A stretch of DNA of 64,000 bases from Sandaracinus amylolyticus (GTDB lineage: Bacteria > Myxococcota_A > Polyangia > Polyangiales > Sandaracinaceae): positions 9,931,945 through 9,995,944 of the forward strand of contig NZ_CP011125.1 of assembly GCF_000737325.1 (NCBI RefSeq), in the 5' to 3' direction. Below the pieces are notes generated by a model. It saw only the letters and a program-made list of their open reading frames with translations, was not told the DNA's origin and made no database searches. The stretch's first letter is position 1. Every line of letters begins with the position of its first letter. Of the stretch, positions 1,951 to 61,898 are shown one piece after another. The position numbers were made by a program, and so were the translations under genes.

Positions 1951-2593
1951 CTAACGAGCGAGCGCGCGCAGGGCGGGATCCACGTCGGTCGCGCCGTATC
2001 CGTGCAGAACGATTGGGATCCGCGGGAGGCGCTCCGCGAGGATTCGGGCGTTCGAGCGGGTGCTGACGTCGGGCTCGGGCGTGGTGCGGTTGAGGACGAG
2101 CGCACCGACGGTGAGCCCCCGGCGCGCCGCGGCCTCGCACGTGGTGAGCGCGTCGGAGAGCACGCCGAGCCGGTCGGGCGCGACGACGATCAGCGGGAGG
2201 TGGAGCGAGACCGCGAGGTCCGCGATCGTGTGGTCGCGGTCGAGCGGGACGAGGAGGCCGCCGGCACCTTCGACGAGCACGAAGCGGGCGCGCGCGTGCT
2301 CGCAGAGGGTCGCGAGCAGGGAATCGAGCTGGAGGGGCGGCGCGCCGTCGAGCTCGGCTGCGTAGGGGCTCAGGGGGGCCGCGGCGCGGTACCAGCGAGG
2401 GTCGTCGGCGAGGGCGGGATCGCCCGAGGCGTCGGCGAGCGCGCGCGCATCGGCGGCGACGGGGTCGACGCCGGTCTCGATCGGCTTCAGCGCGGCGACC
2501 GAGATGCCGTCCGCGCGAAGCGCCCGGGCGAGCGCGGTGGCGACCGTGGTCTTGCCGGCGCCGGTGCCGGTCGCGGTCACGAAGAGGCCCTTC
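1951..2593 (-). CDS. bioD: dethiobiotin synthetase
   Basis: N-terminus MKGLFVTATGTGAGKTT (P-loop typical of BioD). Its ATG overlaps the bioF stop (ATGA). Confidence 0.9.
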
Positions 2594-3761
2594 ATCGGCG
2601 GAGGTCCGCGGCGACGGCGGCGAAGGCGTCGAGGACTCGATCGAGGTGCTCGTCGGTGTGTGCGGCGGTCGGGACGAGGCGGAGTCGAGACGTTCCTTGC
2701 GGCACCGTCGGCGGCCGGATGCCGTGGGCGAACACGCCGCGCTCGAGGAGGGCCGCGGAGACGCGCATCGCGGCAGCGGGCTCGCCGAGGAGCACCGGCA
2801 CGATCGGGGTCTCGCCATCGGGGACGTCGAAGCCGAGCGCGGGCAGCTCGCGGCGCAGGCGTGCGGTGTGACGGGCGAGGCGGGCGCGGCCGTCGTCGGC
2901 GCGCTCGAGGAGATGGAGCGCGGTCGGGACCGCCGCGGCGAGGGCGGGGGGCGTACCGGTCGAGAAGACGAAGCTGCGGGCGCGGTTCTCGACGAGCCGG
3001 ACCACGTCGCTGCTCGAGACGACGAAGGCCCCCGCGAGCCCGAGCGCCTTGCCGAGCGTGCCGAGCACGACGTCGGGGCGAACGTCGAGCTCGGCCGAGA
3101 GCCCGCGGCCGCCCGGCCCACGAACGCCGAGGGCATGGGCTTCGTCCACGTAGAGCCCGGCGTCGAAGCGATCGGCGAGGGCACGGAGCGCGGCGAGGGG
3201 CGCGAGGTCGCCGTCCATCGAGAAGATCGAGTCGGTGACCACGAGCGCGGTTCGGGCCTCGTGGCGATGGGCGGCGAGGAGCGCGGCGGCGTGCTCGACG
3301 TCGGCGTGGCGGTAGACGAGGACGCGAGCGCGGGAGAGCCGGCATCCGTCGATCAGCGAGGCGTGGTTGAGCGTGTCGCTGAGGACGAGGTCGCCCGGCC
3401 CGACGAGCGCGGAGATCGCACCGACGTTGGCGGCGTAGCCGCTGGAGAAGAGGAGCGACGACTCGTGTTCGGCGAAGCGGGCGAGGGCGAGCTCGGCCTC
3501 GCGGTGCGGGCTCATGGTGCCGCTGATCAGCCGGGAGGCGGCGGCGCCGGACCCCCAGCGGACGAGGGCGTCGCGTTGGGCGGCGGCGAGCTCGGGGTGC
3601 GAGGCGTGCCCGAGGTAGTCGTTCGAGCAGAGGAGAACGACCTCGCGCCCGTCGATGACGGCGGTGGGCCCTTGAGGGCTGGTGACGCGCCGCGGGGTCC
3701 TGAGCAGCCCGGCGTGTTCGATGTCGGCGAGGCGAGCCCGGACGTGTTCGGCAAAGCGCAC
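2592..3761 (-). CDS. bioF: 8-amino-7-oxononanoate synthase
   Basis: PLP-dependent class-II aminotransferase fold, with SMDGD and a PLP-lysine region (FSTGTPP...). Translationally coupled to bioD. Confidence 0.9.
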   Translation of the reverse strand: MRFAEHVRARLADIEHAGLLRTPRRVTSPQGPTAVIDGREVVLLCSNDYLGHASHPELAAAQRDALVRWGSGAAASRLISGTMSPHREAELALARFAEHESSLLFSSGYAANVGAISALVGPGDLVLSDTLNHASLIDGCRLSRARVLVYRHADVEHAAALLAAHRHEARTALVVTDSIFSMDGDLAPLAALRALADRFDAGLYVDEAHALGVRGPGGRGLSAELDVRPDVVLGTLGKALGLAGAFVVSSSDVVRLVENRARSFVFSTGTPPALAAAVPTALHLLERADDGRARLARHTARLRRELPALGFDVPDGETPIVPVLLGEPAAAMRVSAALLERGVFAHGIRPPTVPQGTSRLRLVPTAAHTDEHLDRVLDAFAAVAADLRR

Positions 3762-3812
3762 GGCGGGCGAGGGTAGCAGGGGAGGGTCAGCGGGGCAGGT
3801 GCGGCGGGTGCG

Positions 3813-5573
3813 CGTTTCACGTGAAACGGTGGGAGCTGAGGTGCTGGAAGGGTCGAGTCCTGTCGGCGGGGCTCGTGGATGGGGGGGACCGAAGCGGCGC
3901 AGCTAGGGGTCGGCGCGGCGGGGCGTCGGGGCGCGGATGGTTGCTGCAGCGAGCGCGCAGACGGCTCTGGCGAGCGTTTCACGTGAAACGGACAACGCGC
4001 GCGGTGAGGCTCGTTTCACGTGAAACTCGTGGCGAGCCCGAAGTCTCGTGGGCGCCGGGTGCGCGCGTACGGCGGGACGGGAGGCAGGGCAGGCTGCCCG
4101 TGCGGGCGAGCGCAGCTGAGCGGGGGACCAGCTCGTCGCGTTGCCGCGGGTTTGCCGCGCAGGTCCCGCGTCGAGCCGAGGGCACCCGGTGGGTGTCGGC
4201 GATGCTCTTCGGACGATTGGTGGGCCGCGGGACGACGGCTGCGGAACCACGCCGTCGCACCGAGCGCTGACGCTCCTGGTAGCGAGCGAGACGAGGAATG
4301 CCGGGGACCTCTTGGAACGGGGCAGGCGGAGACGCGCGCCGGCAGCGGGAGCAGCGTGTTTCCGATCGCCGAGGAGTTGCGGAGGAGCGCGACGCGGCGC
4401 GGGGGAAGGTGGTTTCACGTGAGACGTCGGCGCGTGTCGATGGGAGCGGCGCGCGGGCGCTGCGACCTTCCGTCGAGGCCCGGCGGGACTCAACGAGTCG
4501 GGTCCTCCGGGGGAGACGGCGACCGGTCGGGACGCAGGCATCGCGGGCACTCGGGAGGTGCGGTGCCCAGGGCGGTCGGCGTCCTCCGCGAGCAGTGCAC
4601 AGCCGCTCGGGACGGGTGTTGGACGCAGGGCGACCGGAACGCCGGGGCCGCCTCGTTCGGAGGAGTGCGCGTGGTTCGGCTGCGAGCGCGACGAACGGTC
4701 CACTCGCGCGGGAAGGGGCCAGGGCGGCAGCGGCGGGCGGAGGCTCTCACGCCATGCGTCGTTAGCGACTCGAGCCGCAGACCGCCCGGGTTCGGGGGGA
4801 CACGTTCGCGCGCGATCCACGGTGTGGATGGGAGAGGTGATCGCACAGCGTCGCGGACCGTGGCGGCGGCAGGCTTGGCCCGTGCCTCGATCCGAGCGCG
4901 GCGGGGCCGCTGCGAGAGGGTGGCCGGCGGAGCGCGTGCACCGACGCGGCGCAATCCCCGCGGCCCACGGGAGTTCGGCGCGACGGCGCGGCAGGAGGAC
5001 GCGGGGCCACGCCGACGCGCGCCGACCAGCCCGGCGCCGGCGTCGTGCCCGCACGCGGAGGTCCGCGGCCGCGCGCTCCCGCTGACTAGCAGTGGACCAG
5101 CTCGGGCGGAGGAGGCTGCGTACCGGGGCGCCGCGGCCGGAGACCACGGCACGACGAGTCGTGCGCGCGGTCGGCTCGTGCGTGGCGCGCCCAACGAGCT
5201 CGAACGCTGCCGAGGGGCTCGGCCCCGGCGGTTCACGTGAAACGGACTGCTCAGAGGCCTCAGCACGTGGGGGCTACCCAGTCCGAGACGTCGCGAGATC
5301 GAGGTCCGCGTGCTGGTCGCGCGCACGCGCGCAGCCGAGCGCGCGTGCCGCCGCTTCCACGGTCGACACTTCGCTGCCGCCGGAGGCCGCCGGCAGGCCC
5401 CGCGGGCAGCCGGGGAGGGCACGCCCGTGTCGGGGGTGGCGTCGCTCCTCGTCACCTCCGGGCCCCGATGGAGCTACCAGGCGAGCGCCCGCCCCGCCCC
5501 ATCACCCCAATCGCGCCCCGCTCCCGTCTGTGCGACGCTGACGACCCCTCCCGAGCAGCGTTTCACGTGAAAC
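3813..5573. repeat. six copies of the 14-bp perfect palindrome GTTTCACGTGAAAC scattered through an ORF-free 1.8-kb region
   Basis: Exact copies at 3813-3826, 3976-3989, 4013-4026 and 5560-5573. One-mismatch copies at 4412-4425 (GTTTCACGTGAGAC) and 5231-5243 (GTTCACGTGAAAC). The first lies 52 bp upstream of the bioF start. The last contains the GTG start codon (5567) of the downstream lipoprotein gene. Confidence 0.9.
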
Positions 5574-7747
5574 TTCGACTCACCCCGCTCGCTCTCCTCG
5601 CGCTCCTCGCCGGCTGTAGCTCGCCCGCGACCGACGCCCCCTCGGCGCCCTCGCCCCCCAGCGCGCCCGTCGCCTCCGCGCCGTCCTCCTCCGAACCCTC
5701 GCGCTCCGTCCTCCTCGCCGAAGCCGACGCGCGACGCCTCTCTCCGACCCTCACCGCGGCGCTCGCCTCGCCCGACGCCGAGACCCGCGCCGCCTCCACT
5801 CTCTCCCTCGGCCGGCTGCACGACCCGGCTGCTTTTCCCCTCCTCGCGCGCGCGCTGCGCGACCCCGCGCCCGAGGTCCGTGACGCCGCTTCCCTCGGCG
5901 TCGGCGCCCTCGAAGACGCCGCGCCGGACGCCGCCTCCGCCGCGCTCCTCGGCGCGCTCGCCACCGAGGCCGACCCCGCGATCCGCGCGCACCAGCTCTT
6001 CGACCTCGGCCGCCTCGCCACCGACGAAGCGCTCGCCGCGCTCCCCGCCGCCCTCGCGTCCGAGCATCCCGTCGAGCGCGAAGCCGCCTGCCTCGGCCTC
6101 GCGAACGCCGCCCTGCGAGGTCGCGTCCCGGACGCCTCTCTTCTCCGGCGCGCGGCCACCCGCATCCCCGACGACGCCTCGTCGCGCGTCCGCCTGGCCT
6201 GCGCCCACGCCCTGTCACGCGTCGCGCCCGCGCCCGACCCCGCCGACGCAACCGCGATCGGCGACGAGCTCGCCCGCGGTCTCGACGACGCCGACGCCGA
6301 CGTTCGCGCGATGTCGGCCCGCGCGCTCGCCCGCCACCCCGGCTCGTCCCTCGCGCGCCTCACCGCTGCCACCGAGGACCCCGACTGGACCGTCGCGGTC
6401 CACGCCCTCCGCGCGCTCGCCCGACGCGCGCACGCCGATCACGCCGAGCCCGCCTACGCCGCGCAGATCCGCGCGCTCCTCGACCGCCTCCTCGCCTCCG
6501 GCGACGTCGCCCCCGGCCCACCCCTCCACGTCTTCCTCACCGCGCTCGACGTCCCCGCGCCGATGGCCCGTCACGGCGCGATCCACACCGTCGCCGCCGA
6601 CGCGCTCGCCCGCCTCGCTGCCGTTCCCCCCGACGTCCCGGCCACCCGCGACCGCGGCCTCGCCCACTGCGCGGTCGCGCGCCTGGTCGACCTCGGGCGC
6701 GGCTGGCCTGCGCGCGTCGACACCTGCGGTCTCGAGCAGGTCGCCGACCACGAGCGCCAGGTGCTCGCCGCCGAGGTGCTCACCGCCGTCGAAGGCTCCG
6801 AAGCGCAGCGCGGCGTGTACCTCCAGCGCCTCCTCCGCCACGAGCATGCGCGCGTGCGCCAGGCCGCGGTGACCGGGATGGGCGCCCTCGACACCCGCGA
6901 GGCGCTCGCCGCGCTGCTCGCGACGCTGCGCGACGACGAGGACGCCGGCGTGACCAACGCCGCGCTCGAAGCGCTCCGCGCGGCCGGGTCACGCCGCGCG
7001 AGCCGCCTCGCCGCGATGGTCCTCGCCGGCGACACCGCCGACGACGGCTGGCCCGCCGCCGCCGTTCTCGCCGCCCTCCGCACCGCGCTCGCCCGCGTCC
7101 GCGCCGCGGACGATCTCGAGGGTCTCGTGACGTGGATCGCCACCGCTCGCGAGCTCTCCGCCCGCGAGCTCGCGTCCGACGCGCGCCCCCTCGCCCGGCA
7201 CGCCAACCTCGCCGTCCGTCGCGCCGCGCTCGAGCTCCTCGCCGAGGCGGGGGTCGCTCCTCCGGACGGCGAGCCCGCCGCGCCGCCCCGACCGCTCGAT
7301 GCGCCCTCGATCGCCGCCGCGCCCCAGGGCCGCGTCGTGCTCGACACCGACCGCGGCGAGGTCGTCATCGAGCTCTGGACCGATCGCGCCCCCACGACGG
7401 TCGCCCGCTTCGTCGAGCTCGTGCGCGCCGGCTTCTACGACGGGCTCACCTTCCACCGCGTCGTGCCGGCGTTCGTGGTGCAGGGCGGCGATCCACGCGG
7501 CGACGGGTATGGCGGGCCCGGCTGGTCCCAGCGCTGCGAGGACCATCGCGCCACCTACGACCGCGGCGTCGTCGGGATGGCGCTCGCCGGGCGCGACACC
7601 GGCGGCAGCCAGTTCTTCATCACGCACTCCCCGCAGCCCCACCTCGACGCCCGCTACACCGCGTTCGGGCGCGTCACGTCGGGCATGGACGCGGTCGACC
7701 GCATCCAGCCGGGCGATCACATCCGACGCGCCCGCTTCGAGCAGTGA
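5567..7747 (+). CDS. lipoprotein with HEAT/PBS-lyase-like repeats fused to a C-terminal cyclophilin-type peptidyl-prolyl isomerase
   Basis: The GTG start is followed by KLRLTPLALLALLAGCSS (lipobox). The central part is repetitive, alanine-rich and HEAT-like. The C-terminus has cyclophilin signatures (FHRVVPAFVVQGGDP, GGSQFFIT). The upstream in-frame Met at 5237 gives only an Arg-rich junk extension. Confidence 0.8.
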   Translation: MKLRLTPLALLALLAGCSSPATDAPSAPSPPSAPVASAPSSSEPSRSVLLAEADARRLSPTLTAALASPDAETRAASTLSLGRLHDPAAFPLLARALRDPAPEVRDAASLGVGALEDAAPDAASAALLGALATEADPAIRAHQLFDLGRLATDEALAALPAALASEHPVEREAACLGLANAALRGRVPDASLLRRAATRIPDDASSRVRLACAHALSRVAPAPDPADATAIGDELARGLDDADADVRAMSARALARHPGSSLARLTAATEDPDWTVAVHALRALARRAHADHAEPAYAAQIRALLDRLLASGDVAPGPPLHVFLTALDVPAPMARHGAIHTVAADALARLAAVPPDVPATRDRGLAHCAVARLVDLGRGWPARVDTCGLEQVADHERQVLAAEVLTAVEGSEAQRGVYLQRLLRHEHARVRQAAVTGMGALDTREALAALLATLRDDEDAGVTNAALEALRAAGSRRASRLAAMVLAGDTADDGWPAAAVLAALRTALARVRAADDLEGLVTWIATARELSARELASDARPLARHANLAVRRAALELLAEAGVAPPDGEPAAPPRPLDAPSIAAAPQGRVVLDTDRGEVVIELWTDRAPTTVARFVELVRAGFYDGLTFHRVVPAFVVQGGDPRGDGYGGPGWSQRCEDHRATYDRGVVGMALAGRDTGGSQFFITHSPQPHLDARYTAFGRVTSGMDAVDRIQPGDHIRRARFEQ

Positions 7748-7845: not shown

Positions 7846-8646
7846 ATGGTAGCCGGGAACGTCGTGCCGCTCGTCGACCTCACGCGACTGCCCGCGCACG
7901 TCGCCATCATCATGGACGGCAACGGCCGCTGGGCGCAGGACCGCGGGATGCCCCGTCCGATCGGCCATCGCGAGGGCAGCGAGTCGGTGCGGCGCACGGT
8001 GCGCGCGTGCCGCCGCCTCGGCGTCCGGGCGCTCACGCTCTACGCGTTCAGCGAGCAGAACTGGCACCGTCCGCCCTTCGAGGTCGAGGCGCTCATGGAG
8101 CTGCTCCGCGAGTTCCTCCTCTCGGAGCGCGAGGAGCTCATCGCGAACCAGATCCGCCTCCGCATGGTCGGCCGTCGCGATCGTCTCCCCGCGCGAGTCC
8201 GCGAGGTGCTCGATCGCATCGAGGGGGAGACCGCGGACTTCCACGAGATGACGCTCACGCTCGCGCTCTCGTACGGCGGGCGCGAGGAGATCGCGGACGC
8301 CGCGCGCGCCCTCGCGATGCAGGCCGCCAAGGGCGAGCTCGACCCCCATCGCATCGACGAGTCGCTGATCGACGCGGTCCTCCCGTCGATGGAGGTCGGC
8401 GCGGTGGACCTGCTCATCCGCACCGGCGGCGAGCAGCGCATCTCGAACTTCCTGCTCTGGGGCGCGGCGTACGCCGAGCTCTATTTCTCCGATCGCCTCT
8501 GGCCCGACTGGACCGAGGTCGATCTCTACGGCGCGATCGAGTCGTTCCAGACGCGCGACCGTCGGTTCGGTCGAGTATCCTCCGACGCCCAGGTGGCTAC
8601 GATGGATGACCTCGCCCCCGACGCGGCCCCGCGCGCGCATGCCTGA
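7846..8646 (+). CDS. uppS: undecaprenyl-diphosphate synthase (isoprenyl transferase)
   Basis: Motifs HVAIIMDGNGRWA and RTGGEQRISNFLLW. Confidence 0.9.
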   Translation: MVAGNVVPLVDLTRLPAHVAIIMDGNGRWAQDRGMPRPIGHREGSESVRRTVRACRRLGVRALTLYAFSEQNWHRPPFEVEALMELLREFLLSEREELIANQIRLRMVGRRDRLPARVREVLDRIEGETADFHEMTLTLALSYGGREEIADAARALAMQAAKGELDPHRIDESLIDAVLPSMEVGAVDLLIRTGGEQRISNFLLWGAAYAELYFSDRLWPDWTEVDLYGAIESFQTRDRRFGRVSSDAQVATMDDLAPDAAPRAHA

Positions 8647-9523
8647 GACCAGCGCTCCCTCGTCCGAGCCCGACGTGGACAAGAAGAAGGCGGCCGACGC
8701 CGCCTTCCTGCGCAACACGCTCGCGCGCCTCGGGACCGCCCTCATCGGCATCCCGATCCTCCTCTATCTGATGTTCTGGGCGCCCTGGTGGGGCTTCCAG
8801 ATCCTCGTCGCGATCGCGATCGCGCGCGCCTCGCACGAGCTCTTCCGGATCACGCACTTCGACTCGAAGCCGATGCACGTGCTCGGCGTCGTGATGTCGC
8901 TCGCGACGACCGCGGTGCTGGTGTTCCTCCGCGACCAGCCGGACGCGCTGCTCGGCCTGATCCTCGGGCTCGGCGCGGTCGGCGCGCTCGGCGGTCTGCT
9001 CGCGCCGCTGCCCTACGATCGCGCCGGCTCGCGCGTCGCGTGGCTGATCGGCGGCCCGCTCTACGTCGGCGGTCTGCTCGGCACCGTCGCGGTGCTGCAC
9101 ACGCTCGAGAAGGGCGGCGCGTGGGTGCTCCTCGCGATGTGGCTCGCGTGGGCGAGCGACACCGGCGCGTACTTCGCGGGCCGCTACTTCGGCAAGACGA
9201 AGCTCTACCCCGCCGTCTCGCCGTCGAAGACCGTGCAGGGCTCGATCGGCGGGCTGCTCGGGTCGCTCACCGGCGGCCTCGCCGCGCACTTCGGGTTCCT
9301 CCCCGAGCTGCCGCTGCTCGACGCCGTCCTGCTCGCGCTCATCGGCGGTGCGCTGGGTCAGATGGGCGACCTCGTCGAGTCGCTCGTCAAGCGCAGCACC
9401 GGCGTGAAGGACAGCGGCTCGATCCTGCCGGGACACGGCGGTCTGCTCGACCGCGTCGATGCGCTGATGTTCACGGCGCTCGCGTGCCTGATCTACGCGA
9501 GCTGGATCCTGCCTCTGCGATAA
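8639..9523 (+). CDS. cdsA: phosphatidate cytidylyltransferase
   Basis: Multi-TM protein with the C-terminal CDS signature (SxxKRxxGVKDSGxxxPGHGGxxDRxD). It overlaps the uppS stop, matching the usual uppS-cdsA arrangement. The start may be the ATG at 8639 (MPETS) or 8606. Confidence 0.85.
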   Translation: MPETSAPSSEPDVDKKKAADAAFLRNTLARLGTALIGIPILLYLMFWAPWWGFQILVAIAIARASHELFRITHFDSKPMHVLGVVMSLATTAVLVFLRDQPDALLGLILGLGAVGALGGLLAPLPYDRAGSRVAWLIGGPLYVGGLLGTVAVLHTLEKGGAWVLLAMWLAWASDTGAYFAGRYFGKTKLYPAVSPSKTVQGSIGGLLGSLTGGLAAHFGFLPELPLLDAVLLALIGGALGQMGDLVESLVKRSTGVKDSGSILPGHGGLLDRVDALMFTALACLIYASWILPLR

Positions 9524-9734
9524 ATCACGCCGCGATTGACGCACTCGTGATCCGTCGCACTCTCGCGCATTCACGCGCGGGCGACGAAATCCGCTGCTCT
9601 GACGGGCATTTCTGCCTCGTCCGCACGACGCGGCGCGTCGTTGCGCCACATGGACGGGGGGTGCATAGGCCCGCCATTGCCCTCGAGCCCAAGGCGCCAA
9701 TGCCGGCTCCCAGGGGGATGGAGTCCGGAGGACC

Positions 9735-11000
9735 ATGTCTGCCAATCACTACGAGTTCTTCAAGGTCGTCCAGGGGTACCTCGAAGAAGCCGCCGACGTC
9801 ATTCATCTGCCGCGCCACGTCGCCGACATCCTCTCGCAGCCGAAGAACGAGATCATCGTTCACTTCCCGGTGCGGATGGACAACGGCGAGATGCAGCTCT
9901 TCAAGGGCTACCGCATCCAGCACAACAACATCCGTGGTCCGTACAAGGGCGGCATTCGCTATCACGAGGCGGTCACGCTCGACGACGTGAAGGCGCTCGC
10001 GTCGATGATGACGTGGAAGTGCGCGCTGATGGACATCCCCTTCGGCGGCGCGAAGGGCGGCGTGAAGGTCAACGCGTCCAAGCACAGCAAGGACGAGCTG
10101 ATGCGCATCACGCGTCGCTTCACCCACGCGCTCGGCAGCAACATCGGCCCCGAGTACGACATCCCCGCGCCCGACGTCGGCACCAACGCGCAGACGATGG
10201 TGTGGATGATGGACACGTACATGAACCGTGTCGGCGACATGGAGAAGAACGCGCAGCGCCACGTCGTCACCGGCAAGTCGATCAGCGCCGGCGGCTCGCA
10301 GGGCCGCGAGAAGGCGACCGCGCAGGGCGCGATCTACTGCCTCCTCGAGTGGGCGAAGGACAACGACTTCCACCTCGAGGGCAAGACCGCCATCGTCCAG
10401 GGCTTCGGCAACGTCGGCTCGCACAGCTCGCAGATCCTCAACAAGCTCGGCGTGAGCACGATCGCGGTCGGCGATCACTCGGGTTACCTCTACAACCCCG
10501 AGGGCTTCAACGCGGCGAAGCTCGCGCAGTACGTGAAGCAGAACGGATCGATCGCGGGCTATCCCAGCGGTCAGCCGATCGAGCGCGAGGACTTCTTCAA
10601 GATCAAGGCGGACATCTTCATCCCCGCCGCGCTCGAGAACCAGATCGGCGCCGAAGAGGCCCGCTCGCTCTCGTGCAAGGTCGTCGTCGAGGGCGCGAAC
10701 GGCCCGACGAACCCCGAGGGTGAGCGCGTCCTCGCCGACAAGGGCATCACCGTCATCCCCGACATCCTCGCGAACGCGGGCGGCGTGACCGTCTCGTACT
10801 ACGAGTGGGTGCAGAACAAGCGCAGCGAGTTCTGGGACGCGGAAGAGGTCGACGAGAAGCTCGAGCGCCGCATGGTGCGCCAGTATCAGAAGGTGATGGA
10901 CTTCGCGCGCAACCATCGCGTCCTTCCGCGCGTCGCGGCGTACTGCCTCGCGCTGGAGAACCTGAAGGCGGCGTACGAAGAGCGCGGCATCTTCCCGTGA
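9735..11000 (+). CDS. gdhA: NAD(P)-specific glutamate dehydrogenase
   Basis: Glu/Leu/Phe/Val dehydrogenase signature region (GGAKGG, catalytic-Lys context) and a C-terminal Rossmann domain. GGAGG Shine-Dalgarno upstream. Confidence 0.9.
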   Translation: MSANHYEFFKVVQGYLEEAADVIHLPRHVADILSQPKNEIIVHFPVRMDNGEMQLFKGYRIQHNNIRGPYKGGIRYHEAVTLDDVKALASMMTWKCALMDIPFGGAKGGVKVNASKHSKDELMRITRRFTHALGSNIGPEYDIPAPDVGTNAQTMVWMMDTYMNRVGDMEKNAQRHVVTGKSISAGGSQGREKATAQGAIYCLLEWAKDNDFHLEGKTAIVQGFGNVGSHSSQILNKLGVSTIAVGDHSGYLYNPEGFNAAKLAQYVKQNGSIAGYPSGQPIEREDFFKIKADIFIPAALENQIGAEEARSLSCKVVVEGANGPTNPEGERVLADKGITVIPDILANAGGVTVSYYEWVQNKRSEFWDAEEVDEKLERRMVRQYQKVMDFARNHRVLPRVAAYCLALENLKAAYEERGIFP

Positions 11001-42685: not shown

Positions 42686-43576
42686 GTGTATATGTTCGGC
42701 GACGTGCGCGCGTCGATCGTCGTCCTCGTGATCACTCTCGCGGGCTGCAGCTCGCTCCTCACCACGTCCACCGAGGCGCCGCCCGCGGCCGCGCCCGTCG
42801 CGGATCGTGACGGCGACGATCTCGCCGGCGAAGCCGATCGCTGCGCCGACGCCGCCGAGGACGTCGACGGCTTCCGCGACGACGACGGATGCCCCGATCC
42901 CGACGACGACGAGGACGGGATCGTCGACGCCGACGATCGCTGCCGCTGCATCGCCGAGGATCGCGACGGCTTCGAGGACGAAGACGGGTGCCCCGACCTC
43001 GACAACGATCGCGACCAGATCCTCGACGCGTGCGACGCGTGCCCGAACGAGATCGAGGTGTACGACGGATGCGCCGACGAGGACGGCTGTCCCGATCGCG
43101 CGCACATCGACATCGAGAGCGGGCGCATCGTGATCCTCGAGCAGATCCTCTTCGCCCGCGGCTCGAGCGCGGTCGCGCCGAGCGCGCACCCGCAGCTCGA
43201 CGCGATCGCCGCGGCGCTCGCGCAGAACACCCAGCTCACCCGCATCTGCGTCACCGGCCACACCGACTTCGGTGAGCCGCGCCCCGATCGCTTGTCGCGA
43301 GCGCGCGCGACCGCGGTGCGCGACTGGCTCGTCGCGCACGGCATCTCCCCCGAGCGCCTCGAGATCGAGAGCGCTGCCGACGCGCGTCCGATCGTCCCGC
43401 GCAGCGCGTCGACGAGCGCGCGCGCCGCGAACCGCCGCGTCGACTTCGAGATCCTCGACGTCACCGGGGGTCGCGCTCCGTCGCTCGGCCGCGGCGGCGG
43501 ATGCACCACGTCGTGGCGCTCGCCGTGCTTCGATCAGCCGCCCCCTCCGCCGCGCGACGTGTGCGCGGAGCCGTGA
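42686..43576 (+). CDS. OmpA-family lipoprotein with thrombospondin type-3 (Ca-binding) repeats
   Basis: Lipobox LAGCSS. Repeated DxDxDGxxDxxDxC blocks. C-terminal OmpA-like peptidoglycan-binding domain (TGHTD...NRRVDFEI). Confidence 0.8.
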   Translation: MYMFGDVRASIVVLVITLAGCSSLLTTSTEAPPAAAPVADRDGDDLAGEADRCADAAEDVDGFRDDDGCPDPDDDEDGIVDADDRCRCIAEDRDGFEDEDGCPDLDNDRDQILDACDACPNEIEVYDGCADEDGCPDRAHIDIESGRIVILEQILFARGSSAVAPSAHPQLDAIAAALAQNTQLTRICVTGHTDFGEPRPDRLSRARATAVRDWLVAHGISPERLEIESAADARPIVPRSASTSARAANRRVDFEILDVTGGRAPSLGRGGGCTTSWRSPCFDQPPPPPRDVCAEP

Positions 43577-43637: not shown

Positions 43638-46463
43638 TCAGTCCATCGGGCGCACGGTGAGCTCGCGCTCCGCGTGCGACATCACGTCCTGCTCGGTGAA
43701 GTAGAGCGGCGGCTGCTCGTTGCGGATCCAGAGCAGCGCCTCGTCCTGCTTGTGCGGGCTCATCGGATCGATGCTCTGTCCACCCGGGATGGCGTTGAAC
43801 GCGCGCGGGCCGTCGGCGGTCATCTCGACGATGAGGCGCTGCGACGCGCCGCTCCCGAACGAGAAGCTCTCGGTGTTCCACAGACCGAAGTTGCCGGGAT
43901 CGACGTTGCCCCAGTCGCCGTGCCGCGGGAACCCGTTGGGGTACGTCGGATCGTTCTCCGCCGGGATCGACAGCACGTCGTCACCGCCGAGGATCGGCAC
44001 CACGCTGTTGAAGCGCACCGTGTGCAGACGGCCCCAGCGCCACTCGGTCCAGTCGCTGGTCTCCATGCGCTCGGTGAGGAACGCGAGGCCCGCGAGCACG
44101 CCGCGGATCACGATCTCCTCCTTCGTCTCGACGGCATCGGTCCGGATGTCGTCCCAGAGCACCGACTCCATCGCCGCCTCGTCGTAGCTGAGCAGGCGCG
44201 ACGGCGACGTCAGCATCCACTCGATCAGACGCGCCGACTCGCTCGTCGGTCCGCCGATCATCGCGCGCTCGGTCTCGTCGCCGAGCGCGAGCGGGATGAT
44301 GCGCGTGAGCGCCGCGTTGAAGATCGTCGTCGCGACGCTGTCCGCGATCTCCGCGGTGTCGGTCGCGCCGACGCCGTGCGGCGTCTCGAACGTCCACTCC
44401 ATGAGCTGCGTGCGCGCCGCCGCGAGGTCGGTCTCCTCGTCCTCGGTGAGCCCGAGCGCTTCGATGGCGGCGGTGTCGCCGAGGATCGCGACGATCGGAT
44501 CACGCAGCGTGCGGCCGAGCGGCGACTGCGTCTCCGCCTGCAGCGCGATCATGTCGTCGGTCGTGATGTCGCCGCGCTCCACGAGCTCCGCGAGGCGCTC
44601 CTGGATGCGCGCCTCGCGCCACCCGTAGTCGAAGCCCGCGCCGACGTAGTGCTCGTCGTTGCAGGGGTTGCCGTCCTGCGTGACGCCGACGTTGTCCTGG
44701 TTCGCCGTCGCGATCCAACCACGCGCAGGCGCGAGCTCGTGCGGGATCGCGGTGTCCGCGAGGTCGCCGGTCCACTCGTACTCGCCGGTGCCGGGCACGA
44801 CCATGTGCGGGCAGTAGCCCGTGTGCTCGCCGGTCTCCTCGTCGATCACGAGGTTCGTCGCCATCTCCGAGCGCACCGGGATGCGCGCCTGCGTCGACCA
44901 CATGATGTCGTCGCGATCGACGATCATGAAGTTCTGCGAGCCGACCTCGAACGCATCGAGCGCGGCGCGCCCCGACTCGACGTCGGTCGCGGTCATCAGG
45001 CCGGTGAACGTCGCGAGCTCGTTGCTCGGCTCCCAGCCCGTGTAGCGCACGCTGACCGCGACGAAGCGATCCGTCGTGCCCTCGACCGCGACGCAGCTGC
45101 CCGGGAGGAACTGGCTGCCCGGACGATGCGACGCGTACGGGAAGCGCACCGTGATCGGGTCGCCGCTCGCGAGGCTGATCGTCTCCTCGTGGAACGCGAT
45201 CGGGCTCTGTCCGCCCATCCACAGCACGGTGCCGCCCGTGACGTTGCCGTCCGCGTCGCACGTGCCCGTGATCTGCTCCTGGTACGCGTCGGTCACGTCG
45301 TAGCCGGTCGTCGTCACGCCCCACGCGATGTCGCGGTTGAAGCCGATGACGACGCCGGGAAGGCCCGCGAACGCAGTGCCCTGCGCGTCGATCATGTCCT
45401 CGCCGCCCATGCGCGCGGTGTTGAGGTGCACGTACCACCACACCGCGGGCGAGATCAGCGACAGGTGCGGATCGTTCGAGAGGATCGGGTTGCCGCTCGC
45501 GGTGTGCTCGCCCGAGACGGTCCAGTTGTTCGAGCCGCGCGTGACGAGGTCACCGAAGATGCGCGACTGGCGCTCCTCGATGCGATCGAGGAACGGCATC
45601 GCGCCGCGGATCGCGCGCACGTTCGGCGTGAAGCGCGCGCCGAAGGGACGCGGATCGATCACCGGAAGCAGCGCCATCGTCGTGCCGTCGGGGAAGCCGT
45701 CGTCGGTGAACGCCTCGCGCGCCGGCCGCTGCGTGAAGAGGTCCTCGAAGAGGCCCGAGCGCGCCGCGATGCGCGGATCGGCGTCGTCGGCGGGGAACGC
45801 CTGCTGGATGAGCGCGAGGCGCGCCGAGCGATTCAGATCGTCGCGCGGATCGAAGCTCAGGTTCGCCGACTGGAAGCGCGCGAGCGCGAAGATGTCGGCG
45901 GGCTCCCAGTGCCCGAAGCTCGAGCCGAAGATCACGAGGTTGATGACGTCCGCGCCCATCACGGCGGGGTCCTCCTCGCGGCGCATCACGGCATCGATGT
46001 AGAGGTTGATGCCCTCGACGAACGCCTCGGCCGACAAGCGCGCCGGATCGTCCGTGGGGAGGCTCTCGTAGATCTCGACGCCCATGCGCCGGTAGCCTTC
46101 CCAGCGCGAGATCACGTCGTCCTCGAGCGAGTCCTCGCCCGCGATCTCCGCGATGCGACCGAGCACGCTGCGACGGATGAACTCCATCTGGGCGAAGCGA
46201 TCGCGGCTCATCAGGTAGCCCTGCACGACGAGCACGTCGTGGCGCGTCGTCCCGTAGATGTGCGGGATGCCGCGATCGTCGTACACGACCTCGACCTCTC
46301 CATCGAGGCCCGGCAGCGCGAGGTCGGTGGTCGTCATCATCCCCGCGTCGGTGCCGCCGTCGGTCGTGGGCGGCGCGTCGTCGTCGTCGCCGCACGCAGC
46401 GAGCAAGGGCAGCGATGCGAGAGAGAGCAGGAGCAAGCGGAACCGGTACGTCATGCGCGGCAT
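43638..46463 (-). CDS. penicillin-acylase-family Ntn hydrolase (S45; possible acyl-homoserine-lactone or beta-lactam acylase) lipoprotein
   Basis: Lipobox LPLLAACGDD. The beta-subunit N-terminal nucleophile context GSNNW. Conserved alpha and beta subunit regions. The start is either 46463 or 46454. Confidence 0.85.
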   Translation of the reverse strand: MPRMTYRFRLLLLSLASLPLLAACGDDDDAPPTTDGGTDAGMMTTTDLALPGLDGEVEVVYDDRGIPHIYGTTRHDVLVVQGYLMSRDRFAQMEFIRRSVLGRIAEIAGEDSLEDDVISRWEGYRRMGVEIYESLPTDDPARLSAEAFVEGINLYIDAVMRREEDPAVMGADVINLVIFGSSFGHWEPADIFALARFQSANLSFDPRDDLNRSARLALIQQAFPADDADPRIAARSGLFEDLFTQRPAREAFTDDGFPDGTTMALLPVIDPRPFGARFTPNVRAIRGAMPFLDRIEERQSRIFGDLVTRGSNNWTVSGEHTASGNPILSNDPHLSLISPAVWWYVHLNTARMGGEDMIDAQGTAFAGLPGVVIGFNRDIAWGVTTTGYDVTDAYQEQITGTCDADGNVTGGTVLWMGGQSPIAFHEETISLASGDPITVRFPYASHRPGSQFLPGSCVAVEGTTDRFVAVSVRYTGWEPSNELATFTGLMTATDVESGRAALDAFEVGSQNFMIVDRDDIMWSTQARIPVRSEMATNLVIDEETGEHTGYCPHMVVPGTGEYEWTGDLADTAIPHELAPARGWIATANQDNVGVTQDGNPCNDEHYVGAGFDYGWREARIQERLAELVERGDITTDDMIALQAETQSPLGRTLRDPIVAILGDTAAIEALGLTEDEETDLAAARTQLMEWTFETPHGVGATDTAEIADSVATTIFNAALTRIIPLALGDETERAMIGGPTSESARLIEWMLTSPSRLLSYDEAAMESVLWDDIRTDAVETKEEIVIRGVLAGLAFLTERMETSDWTEWRWGRLHTVRFNSVVPILGGDDVLSIPAENDPTYPNGFPRHGDWGNVDPGNFGLWNTESFSFGSGASQRLIVEMTADGPRAFNAIPGGQSIDPMSPHKQDEALLWIRNEQPPLYFTEQDVMSHAERELTVRPMD

Positions 46464-46559
46464 GATACACGGGCGAAACATCGCGCTCGTGATCGCGCTT
46501 GACGCGCGCGCTGCGCAGACACACACCGCGCCACCTGATTGTCCGCTGAGGAAATGAAC

Positions 46560-47669
46560 ATGGCCGAGCTCACCACCGAGTCGCTCCGCACCGCGCTGTC
46601 GAAGGTCGTCGATCCGGTGTTCGAAAAGCCGATGCTCGACATCGGCGCGCTGACCGATCTGTCGGTGGAGCCCGGTGGCGAGGTGAAGGTGCGCGCGCAC
46701 CTCGCGACTCCGTCGAGCACCGTGCACGCGAAGGTGCGCGAGGAGATCGAGCGCGCGGCGCGCGAGGCCGGCGCGACGGCGGTCGACATCGCGATCGACG
46801 TGCAGGTCCCGACGCGCGAGGTGATGGGCGACGACCCGATCCCCGGCGTGAAGAACGTCGTGCTCGTGATGAGCGGCAAGGGCGGCGTCGGGAAGAGCAC
46901 GACCGCCGTGAACCTGACGCTCGCGCTCAAGCGCGCGGGGCTGCGCGTCGGCATCCTCGACGCGGACATCTACGGCCCGTCGATCCCGACGATGATGGGC
47001 GTGCACGGCCACCCGCCGACGCGCGACGACAAGAAGATCCTCCCGCTCGAGCGCTTCGGCGTGAAGATGATGTCGATCGGCTTCCTGCTCGAGGACGACA
47101 AGCAGGCGGTGATCTGGCGCGGACCGATGCTGCACAGCGCGCTGCAGCAGTTCCTCAAGGACGTCGAGTGGGGCGAGCTCGACTACCTCGTGCTCGACCT
47201 GCCGCCGGGCACCGGCGACGTCGCGCTGACGATGGCGCAGAAGCTCAAGGTGAGCGGCGTCGTGATGGTGACCACGCCGCAAGAGGTCGCGCTGCAGGAC
47301 GTCTACAAGTGCGTCTCGATGTGCAGCAAGCTGAGCCTGCCGATCCTCGGCGTGATCGAGAACATGAGCTACTTCGTCGACAGCGCGGGCGTGCGACAGG
47401 AGCTCTTCGGACGCGGCGGCGGCGAGAAGATCGCGGAGTTCGCGAAGGCGCCGCTGCTCGGTCAGATCCCGCTCGAGCCGCCGGTGCGCGAGTGGGGCGA
47501 CAAGGGCATGCCGATCGTGCAGAGCGTGCCCGACAGTGCGAGCGCGAAGGCGTTCACCGCGGTGGCGGACGCGCTGATCGCGAAGGTCGCGAACCTGCAC
47601 TTCGAGCGCACCGGCGGGACTCGCATCCCCGCGGCGAAGGGCCCGACTCGACTGCGCATCGTGCGCTGA
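46560..47669 (+). CDS. apbC: Fe-S cluster carrier ATPase Mrp/ApbC
   Basis: N-terminal DUF59-like domain. Deviant Walker A GKGGVGKST. CxxC. GAGGA Shine-Dalgarno 9 nt upstream of the ATG at 46560. Confidence 0.85.
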   Translation: MAELTTESLRTALSKVVDPVFEKPMLDIGALTDLSVEPGGEVKVRAHLATPSSTVHAKVREEIERAAREAGATAVDIAIDVQVPTREVMGDDPIPGVKNVVLVMSGKGGVGKSTTAVNLTLALKRAGLRVGILDADIYGPSIPTMMGVHGHPPTRDDKKILPLERFGVKMMSIGFLLEDDKQAVIWRGPMLHSALQQFLKDVEWGELDYLVLDLPPGTGDVALTMAQKLKVSGVVMVTTPQEVALQDVYKCVSMCSKLSLPILGVIENMSYFVDSAGVRQELFGRGGGEKIAEFAKAPLLGQIPLEPPVREWGDKGMPIVQSVPDSASAKAFTAVADALIAKVANLHFERTGGTRIPAAKGPTRLRIVR

Positions 47670-47682
47670 TCGCTCTCTCTCC

Positions 47683-47908
47683 GAGGGCTGCTCGGCCTGC
47701 GTTCGACGTCTTCTCGAGACCCCTGCGCGGGCGGTGGCTTCACGGCGGTGCATGCGAAGGGGGCTTGGCCCCCTCCGCCCCACCCCTTCGGGGCTCGAGA
47801 GTCCGTCGCGCGGGCGTCGGGCACGAGCGCGGCCGGTGGGCATGCTCGATCGTGTCGGTCCCCCGCGAAGCGGGGGCCCCTAGCCGACACTTCGCGGGTC
47901 GCCGAGAT
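47683..47908 (+). repeat. copy A of an approximately 226-bp highly structured repeat element
   Basis: About 95% identical to the copies at 49241-49466 and 51940-52166, both in opposite orientation. Ends CTCGGC...GCCGAG form a 6-bp terminal inverted repeat. It contains several perfect GC hairpins (GGGGGCttgGCCCCC; CCCCCGCgaaGCGGGGG nested in GTCGG...CCGAC) and SphI/XhoI-type palindromes. Confidence 0.9.

Positions 47909-54851: not shown

Positions 54852-61898
<7,047 letters not shown>

Follow-up and report, generated by a model that had tools for sequence, protein, structure and literature searches.

Six palindromes between bioF and a PPIase lipoprotein gene as a probable parS cluster of the Sandaracinus amylolyticus chromosome

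INTRODUCTION

parS is the best-known palindrome of bacterial chromosome biology. Here we describe a 64,000-bp stretch of the Sandaracinus amylolyticus chromosome (contig NZ_CP011125.1, positions 9,931,945 to 9,995,944 of the forward strand), hereafter the window, and a gene-free spacer near its left end that carries six copies of one 14-bp palindrome. The spacer separates bioF from a divergently transcribed gene encoding a PPIase lipoprotein. Very probably, these palindromes are parS sites of the chromosome and together mark the 1.8-kb spacer as the centromere (partition site cluster) of S. amylolyticus. We favor this reading because the motif matches the parS consensus, is confined to one locus in the 64 kb, is conserved in synteny in all 19 relatives compared, and lies in a spacer that has no coding or RNA signal.

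Published parS sites of several bacteria contain a common core. The site of Mycobacterium smegmatis is GTTTCACGTGAAAC, and the same core is contained in the sites of Hyphomonas neptunium (TGTTTCACGTGAAACA), Streptococcus pneumoniae (AGTTTCACGTGAAACT), and both Bacillus subtilis and Corynebacterium glutamicum (TGTTNCACGTGAAACA) (table in PMC7022226). Most bacteria carry one to four parS sites; counts of five to eight occur in several, and counts of 20 or more in a few (PMC3899335, PMC3778016). In Myxococcus xanthus, where the ParABS system is essential, 22-24 sites form a cluster of ~3 kb that is located ~4 kb upstream of parAB and 30-35 kb from oriC, and ParB binds these sites in vitro (PMC3899335, PMC3778016). 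Effects of promoter-proximal parS sites on neighboring genes have been reported for Pseudomonas aeruginosa (PMC5521831) and S. pneumoniae (PMC4488948).

RESULTS

Six copies of the parS core in one spacer

A search of the whole window with up to two mismatches allowed returned six matches to GTTTCACGTGAAAC, every one between 3814 and 5573. Four are exact and start at 3814, 3976, 4013, and 5560; the other two have one mismatch and start at 4412 (GTTTCACGTGAGAC) and 5230 (GGTTCACGTGAAAC). By chance, 0.04 matches are expected in 64 kb at this threshold, and none of 100 shuffles reached six copies. The exact copies extend to 16 bp as CGTTTCACGTGAAACG/T. The spacer and its sites are:

Spacer with six sites, 3762..5566, unstranded: 1,805 bp; 75% G+C; plus strand 43% G and 32% C
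parS-1, 3813..3828, unstranded: CGTTTCACGTGAAACG; exact 14-bp core at 3814-3827; perfect 16-bp palindrome; 52 bp upstream of the bioF start
parS-2, 3975..3990, unstranded: CGTTTCACGTGAAACG; exact
parS-3, 4012..4027, unstranded: CGTTTCACGTGAAACT; exact; 37 bp after parS-2
parS-4, 4411..4426, unstranded: GGTTTCACGTGAGACG; one mismatch in the core
parS-5, 5229..5244, unstranded: CGGTTCACGTGAAACG; one mismatch in the core
parS-6, 5559..5574, unstranded: CGTTTCACGTGAAACT; exact; includes the GTG start (5567-5569) of the lipoprotein gene

All six copies fall within 1.76 kb, and the remaining 62 kb of the window has no copy. No additional copies were found in the 7.4 kb further left of the window. 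The 7-mer half-sites are likewise restricted to the spacer, with GTGAAAC at 43573 as the sole exception in the window. Dispersal of the kind seen with repetitive extragenic palindromes or miniature inverted-repeat transposable elements was not found, as no copy lies beyond this single locus in 64 kb. The 90-bp flanks of the six copies have no mutual similarity above a shuffled null.

At the level of sequence, GTTTCACGTGAAAC is the core of the pan-bacterial chromosomal parS consensus tGTTNCACGTGAAACa, at which ParB/Spo0J nucleates. The string GTTTCACGTGAAAC occurs with the name parS in 26 papers. Against the consensus tabulated in PMC7022226, four copies are identical to the 14-bp core and two have one mismatch. 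A preliminary description of this DNA had counted the same four exact and two one-mismatch copies, and its distance of about 50 bp between the first site and bioF agrees with the 52 bp measured from the start at 3761; two of its coordinates (3813 and 5231) were each off by one and are corrected here to 3814 and 5230. It had found no operator that it could name for the motif, and the match to the parS core supplies that name. Among the explanations it offered, nucleation sites for a DNA-structuring protein was essentially right, with parS left unnamed. Its interpretation as a whole is partly supported.

Comparison with described partition sites

Six sites is on the high side, yet inside the known range. 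The cluster resembles that of M. xanthus, a member of the same phylum, in being a dense array of 16-bp ParB palindromes within a few kb and in exceeding the norm of one to four sites. It differs in several ways. The consensus in M. xanthus is TGTTCCACGTGGAACG, and Sandaracinus has the universal GTTTCACGTGAAAC core; M. xanthus has 22 sites and Sandaracinus six; and the Sandaracinus sites are irregularly spaced in a non-repetitive spacer. With the parS of B. subtilis (Spo0J), M. smegmatis, and H. neptunium (tGTTNCACGTGAAACa) the 14-bp core is identical, and four of the six Sandaracinus copies are perfect palindromes. In those species, parS sites are single or dispersed, and many are intragenic, whereas those of Sandaracinus form a cluster in an intergenic stretch of their own. 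At the outermost positions, Sandaracinus has C/G and canonical tGTTNCACGTGAAACa-type parS has T/A.

Sites directly at a promoter or gene 5' end have parallels in parS3/parS4 of P. aeruginosa (PMC5521831) and in the parS near comCDE of S. pneumoniae (PMC4488948). Unlike these, overlap with a start codon is confined to Sandaracinus-like genomes, and the sites of other relatives are 30-250 bp upstream. Noc binding sites (ATTTCCCGGGAAAT) and the parS of plasmids and secondary chromosomes (e.g., Burkholderia chrII, GTTTATGCGCATAAAC) are also 14-16-bp palindromes that are bound by CTPase clamps of the ParB family, but they differ at the specificity-determining central positions, where the window sites match the ParB type.

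The spacer has no coding, RNA, or mobile element signal

In a GC frame plot, codon-position GC is flat (0.69-0.82) from ~3660 to 5460, while the flanking genes have third-position GC of at least 0.9. Long spacer open reading frames (ORFs) translate to Arg/Gly/Pro-rich sequence on six-frame inspection, and none of the eight spacer ORFs scanned had a Pfam match at E<=1. Comparison of the spacer by tblastx with the loci of all relatives and with a second genome labeled S. amylolyticus (CP070225.1), run against shuffled controls, returned only compositional noise. In GenBank, bioF (AKF11449.1) and the PPIase gene (AKF11450.1) are numbered consecutively; therefore, no GenBank gene lies between them. 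Flat codon-position GC, the lack of Pfam matches, and the lack of an annotated gene uphold the earlier account of an ORF-free stretch of 1.8 kb.

Logan gene calls (SRR29904086_453; contig of SRR29904083) report a 406-amino acid ORF at 4020-5240 on the plus strand. It has no Pfam match, no homologues in its cluster, and no codon-position GC signal. The ORF begins at a GTG inside parS-3 and ends at a TGA inside parS-5. Because it is bounded by the GTG and TGA of parS sites and lacks a codon-position GC signal, this call is spurious, created by the palindrome itself.

Rfam gave no match on the whole window at the gathering threshold and none on the spacer at E<=1. Folding z-scores against shuffles were +0.40, +1.24, and +0.07 in three folds, which indicates no excess folding energy on either strand. 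The spacer is unalignable to any relative, and the earlier suggestion of a long structured RNA finds no support. parS is the only repeat in the spacer; neither terminal repeats nor extended repeat families are present, and Pfam detected no transposase signal there at E<=1. No DnaA box (<=1 mismatch) and no AT-rich stretch or unwinding element was found, and on these grounds an oriC within the spacer was rejected. A promoter and terminator scan of the spacer found nothing, and such a scan is uninformative at 75% GC.

Conservation in related genomes

Nineteen orthologous loci were compared: one genome locus (L003), 15 metagenome loci (L007-L011, L013-L021, and L024), and three contigs (L087-L089). 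Their PPIase proteins are 41-68% identical to that of the window, and the gene order bioD-bioF / PPIase-uppS-cdsA-gdh is common to the relatives wherever the flanks are long enough. All 19 carry parS (<=1 mismatch) at the same place, between the divergent bioF and PPIase genes, with one to four sites each. Exact copies in these loci number 32 in 248 kb. Nearly all of the relatives' sites are at most 350 bp upstream of the PPIase gene. The intergenic sequence around them is otherwise unrelated between loci, and the 14-16-bp site alone is kept. Because only this site is conserved while the surrounding intergenic DNA diverges, the pattern points to selection for a protein-binding site whose place in the chromosome is conserved, such as would be expected of a centromere and not of a mobile repeat, an RNA, or a decayed gene.

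Most relatives have a bioF-PPIase interval of 150-470 bp with two to four sites (for example, 300 bp with three sites in L087, 178 bp with two in L089, and 185 bp with three in L003), and in these three loci a site is located 43-112 bp from the bioF start. None has an intact gene in the interval, which the preliminary description had named as the mark of a decayed pseudogene region; a short intergenic region is present instead. A further 67 loci with only more distant cyclophilin homologues (638 kb) contained eight sites, all on short contigs and directly after the stop codon of apparent partial orthologues.

Many relatives have an extra parS at or just past the PPIase stop codon, so that sites bracket the gene. 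No such site is present in the window between 7747 and 7846. Positions of these sites are:

L007, 2503
L009, 2651
L014, 1828
L027, 1367
L028, 717
L030, 609
L033, 915
L034, 411
L036, 350
L075, 593

Pairs of parS at 35-37 bp start-to-start (~3.5 helical turns) recur in six lineages, and pair spacing in other lineages is 26, 32, 46, 50, or 72 bp. The 35-37-bp pairs are:

Window, 3976/4013
L003, 9846/9882
L015, 9926/9962
L018, 7772/7809
L019, 9863/9898
L021, 3347/3384

Spacer length and turnover

In CP070225.1 (L092; record 8,216,555-8,237,724), the bioF-PPIase spacer is 2,216 bp and also has six sites, at different spacings. No further copies were found in the 19 kb flanking that cluster. Between this genome and the window, the flanking genes are 84-97% identical and other intergenic regions 76-96%. 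Only the margins of the spacers align, over ~50 bp next to bioF and 80 bp next to the PPIase gene. In the interiors (1.67 kb in the window and 2.08 kb in CP070225.1), neither sensitive blastn nor tblastx found anything above shuffled controls. Both spacers are non-coding, and their compositions are nearly equal (A.13, C.32-.33, G.43, T.11-.12). Identity between the two genomes falls toward the spacer from both sides, and divergence at third codon positions of the adjacent PPIase gene is already high (69% identity). Unconstrained drift together with insertions and deletions may account for a large part of the lost alignability.

Two other relatives behave comparably. L019 (45% PPIase identity, 73% GC) has a 1.6-kb non-coding bioF-PPIase spacer (8264-9897) with parS at both ends; this sequence is dissimilar to the window spacer, and its GC skew is opposite. 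In L088 (61% PPIase identity), the contig ends (positions 1-300) inside a tandem array of 72-bp units that are 97% identical. Each unit has an exact parS, and at least four sites are present, which suggests recent amplification of parS units and a repeat-caused assembly break. Taken with the two Sandaracinus spacers, these loci indicate that the parS arrays of this clade expand and turn over.

Flanking genes and the PPIase start codon

The genes that border the spacer are:

bioF (8-amino-7-oxononanoate synthase), left flank, 2592..3761, minus strand: transcribed away from the spacer; AKF11449.1
HEAT-repeat and cyclophilin-type PPIase lipoprotein gene, right flank, 5567..7747, plus strand: 726 amino acids; 100% identical to AKF11450.1; conserved parS neighbor in relatives

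The preliminary description stated that the last site includes the initiation codon of the downstream gene, and this is confirmed. The GTG at 5567-5569 inside parS-6 is the only start that keeps the lipoprotein signal peptide VKLRLTPLALLALLAGC, and both NCBI and Logan gene calls use it for the 726-amino acid product. The same description proposed that binding at this site would occlude translation initiation. That proposal is unfit for a DNA-binding protein, and the RNA hairpin possible for the motif at the start codon is weak (-3.7 kcal/mol, z -0.95). Any effect of bound ParB on the PPIase gene would be on transcription, not translation. In L003, the third site supplies the GTG start of the PPIase gene (MKHLSAVFIALLASC), and in CP070225.1 a site with one mismatch likewise overlaps this start. 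Because the sites of most other lineages are 30-250 bp upstream of the true PPIase start, the overlap is a Sandaracinus peculiarity and not the purpose of the element.

Annotations of both flanking genes conflict. bioF is 307 amino acids in GenBank (AKF11449.1) and 389 in RefSeq (WP_053238313.1); the PPIase is 726 amino acids in GenBank (AKF11450.1), 394 in RefSeq (WP_240481326.1), and 759 in one Logan call. To the right of the cluster are uppS, cdsA, gdh, yqeY, an M1 peptidase gene, and further ordinary chromosomal genes. To the left are bioD and genes for a DUF4397 protein, a LysM peptidase, and menaquinone synthesis. Between 2000 and 7500, the flanking genes have markedly C-rich sense strands, with a coding-strand GC skew of approximately -0.2 to -0.3; therefore, local skew follows transcription direction.

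Two observations concern more distant parts of the window. At 43638-47879 (minus strand), a stop-free penicillin-amidase frame extends ~500 codons upstream of its Pfam domain and lies antisense over a plus-strand gene for an Mrp/ApbC-type P-loop ATPase (46539-47669, KGGVGKS at 46878); the extension is a typical high-GC artefact. At 54852-61898 (plus strand), an ORF of ~2,350 amino acids has four MopE-type metal-binding repeats, a DUF4114 domain, and a BNR repeat-like domain.

DISCUSSION

Several points weigh against identification of the cluster as the partition site of this chromosome. parA, parB, and dnaA were sought by Pfam scans of ~48 ORFs across the window and by motif scans run on the window as well as on all loci, and the left side was extended ~7 kb beyond the window on a Logan contig that ends in men genes. 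Over this range, which reaches from the cluster ~11 kb leftward and 58 kb rightward, neither parA nor parB was found, and the motif scan found neither within +-10 kb in any relative. This is unlike M. xanthus, where the cluster is 4 kb from parA. In CP070225.1 the locus is at 8.22 of 10.75 Mb, which is an assembly coordinate and not a distance from the origin. Two of the six sites have a core mismatch and may bind weakly. Binding of ParB to the six sites in S. amylolyticus is proposed here by analogy. In the literature searched, no paper pairs Sandaracinus with ParB or describes the cluster for this genus.

The only P-loop candidate found was the Mrp/ApbC-type protein at 46539-47669. It belongs to the MinD/ParA superfamily but is not a partition ParA. 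Searches for DnaA in the window, the ~7-kb left extension, and the +-10 kb covered in the relatives were negative, and the 64-kb GC-skew profile has no clear replication-related skew. A cognate ParABS system is expected in S. amylolyticus because ParABS is essential in M. xanthus. The locus would lie near the replication origin.

Found in every relative between two genes of opposite orientation, the sites could instead be operators of a transcription factor for bioF and the PPIase gene, such as a biotin regulator or a CACGTG-binding repressor, with the copies representing auto-amplified operators. One site ~50 bp from the bioF start and, in Sandaracinus, one copy over the PPIase start codon would fit this explanation. 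It is nevertheless very improbable. The sequence is the parS consensus and is not known to match a biotin operator (BirA, BioQ, or BioR box). Up to six copies are spread over 1.8-2.2 kb, most of them distant from either promoter, and ~10 relatives have copies inside, at, or past the 3' end of the PPIase gene. No other gene in 64 kb has a copy upstream, and the earlier idea of a regulon operator fails on the same confinement to one locus and on the arrangement in arrays. The spacer could also be the remnant of an integrated plasmid or mobile element with its own partition site, or a decayed gene with coincidental motifs, since it is long, gene-free, and G-rich on the strand antisense to a would-be minus-strand gene, and a gene caller does report the 406-amino acid ORF. 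That ORF simply begins at a parS GTG and ends at the TGA of a different site. The same housekeeping synteny is present in 19 relatives, which lack a gene in the interval, and the spacer has no Pfam match in any frame at E<=1, no codon-position signal, and no terminal repeats beyond the sites themselves. Unrelated copy flanks, the lack of a transposase signal, and a position conserved in 19 relatives also count against the decayed mobile element suggested previously. Either form of remnant is extremely improbable and largely refuted.

A different possibility accepts the sites as true parS and makes the spacer itself functional, as a gene-free platform for ParB loading or condensation or as a transcribed, G-rich modulator of the centromere. 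Both Sandaracinus genomes have long non-coding spacers (1.8 and 2.2 kb) of near-identical composition with six sites and no sequence similarity, a non-coding spacer of 1.6 kb is present in the independent lineage L019, and in M. xanthus 22 sites are spread across 3 kb (PMC3899335, PMC3778016). However, closer and more distant relatives (L087, L089, L003, and others) manage with 150-470 bp and two to four sites, and parS apart, nothing in the spacer is conserved. There is no RNA-family match or folding signal, the GC skew of L019 is opposite to that of the window, and neutral drift with insertions and deletions may suffice. We consider a function of the spacer itself quite unlikely.

For a parS cluster, the steps of partition can be proposed from the established behavior of the ParABS family. 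ParB dimers would recognize each 16-bp palindrome through their helix-turn-helix domains, bind CTP, close into a clamp, and slide onto flanking DNA. Repeated loading at six close sites would build one large partition complex that spans the spacer and its neighbors, bioD-bioF on one side and PPIase-uppS-cdsA on the other. Nucleoid-bound ParA-ATP would then pull duplicated complexes apart, and the complex probably also loads SMC. The DNA between the sites appears to have no detectable sequence-specific role, and the sites are its conserved part. By the same analogy, ParB may influence the two flanking promoters. With sites in the promoter region of bioF and over the start codon of the PPIase gene, bound ParB could lower the transcription of the two.

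The contrast between sites and spacer allows a bolder proposal. The Sandaracinus centromere may be a dedicated gene-free region of ~2 kb in which selection keeps six loading sites while the sequence between them, their spacing, and the length of the region turn over far faster than other intergenic DNA. We regard this as unlikely; if true, it would give bacteria a small counterpart of the fast-evolving regional centromere, one that may also lie unusually far from parAB or oriC.

Identification of these sites removes a false mystery, as a palindrome without a known operator becomes a standard bacterial centromere site. It also provides a usable annotation, in which the partition site of S. amylolyticus and a related clade of Myxococcota would be located between bioF and the HEAT-repeat cyclophilin lipoprotein gene. 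For annotators it carries a warning that the GTG and TGA of parS can bracket spurious ORFs in high-GC genomes. The bioF-PPIase locus is a natural target for chromatin immunoprecipitation of ParB, tagging of the origin region, and work on chromosome organization in very large genomes. The long, fast-changing, gene-free spacer that keeps six sites in two Sandaracinus genomes offers a modest starting point for asking how parS arrays gain, lose, and keep their sites.

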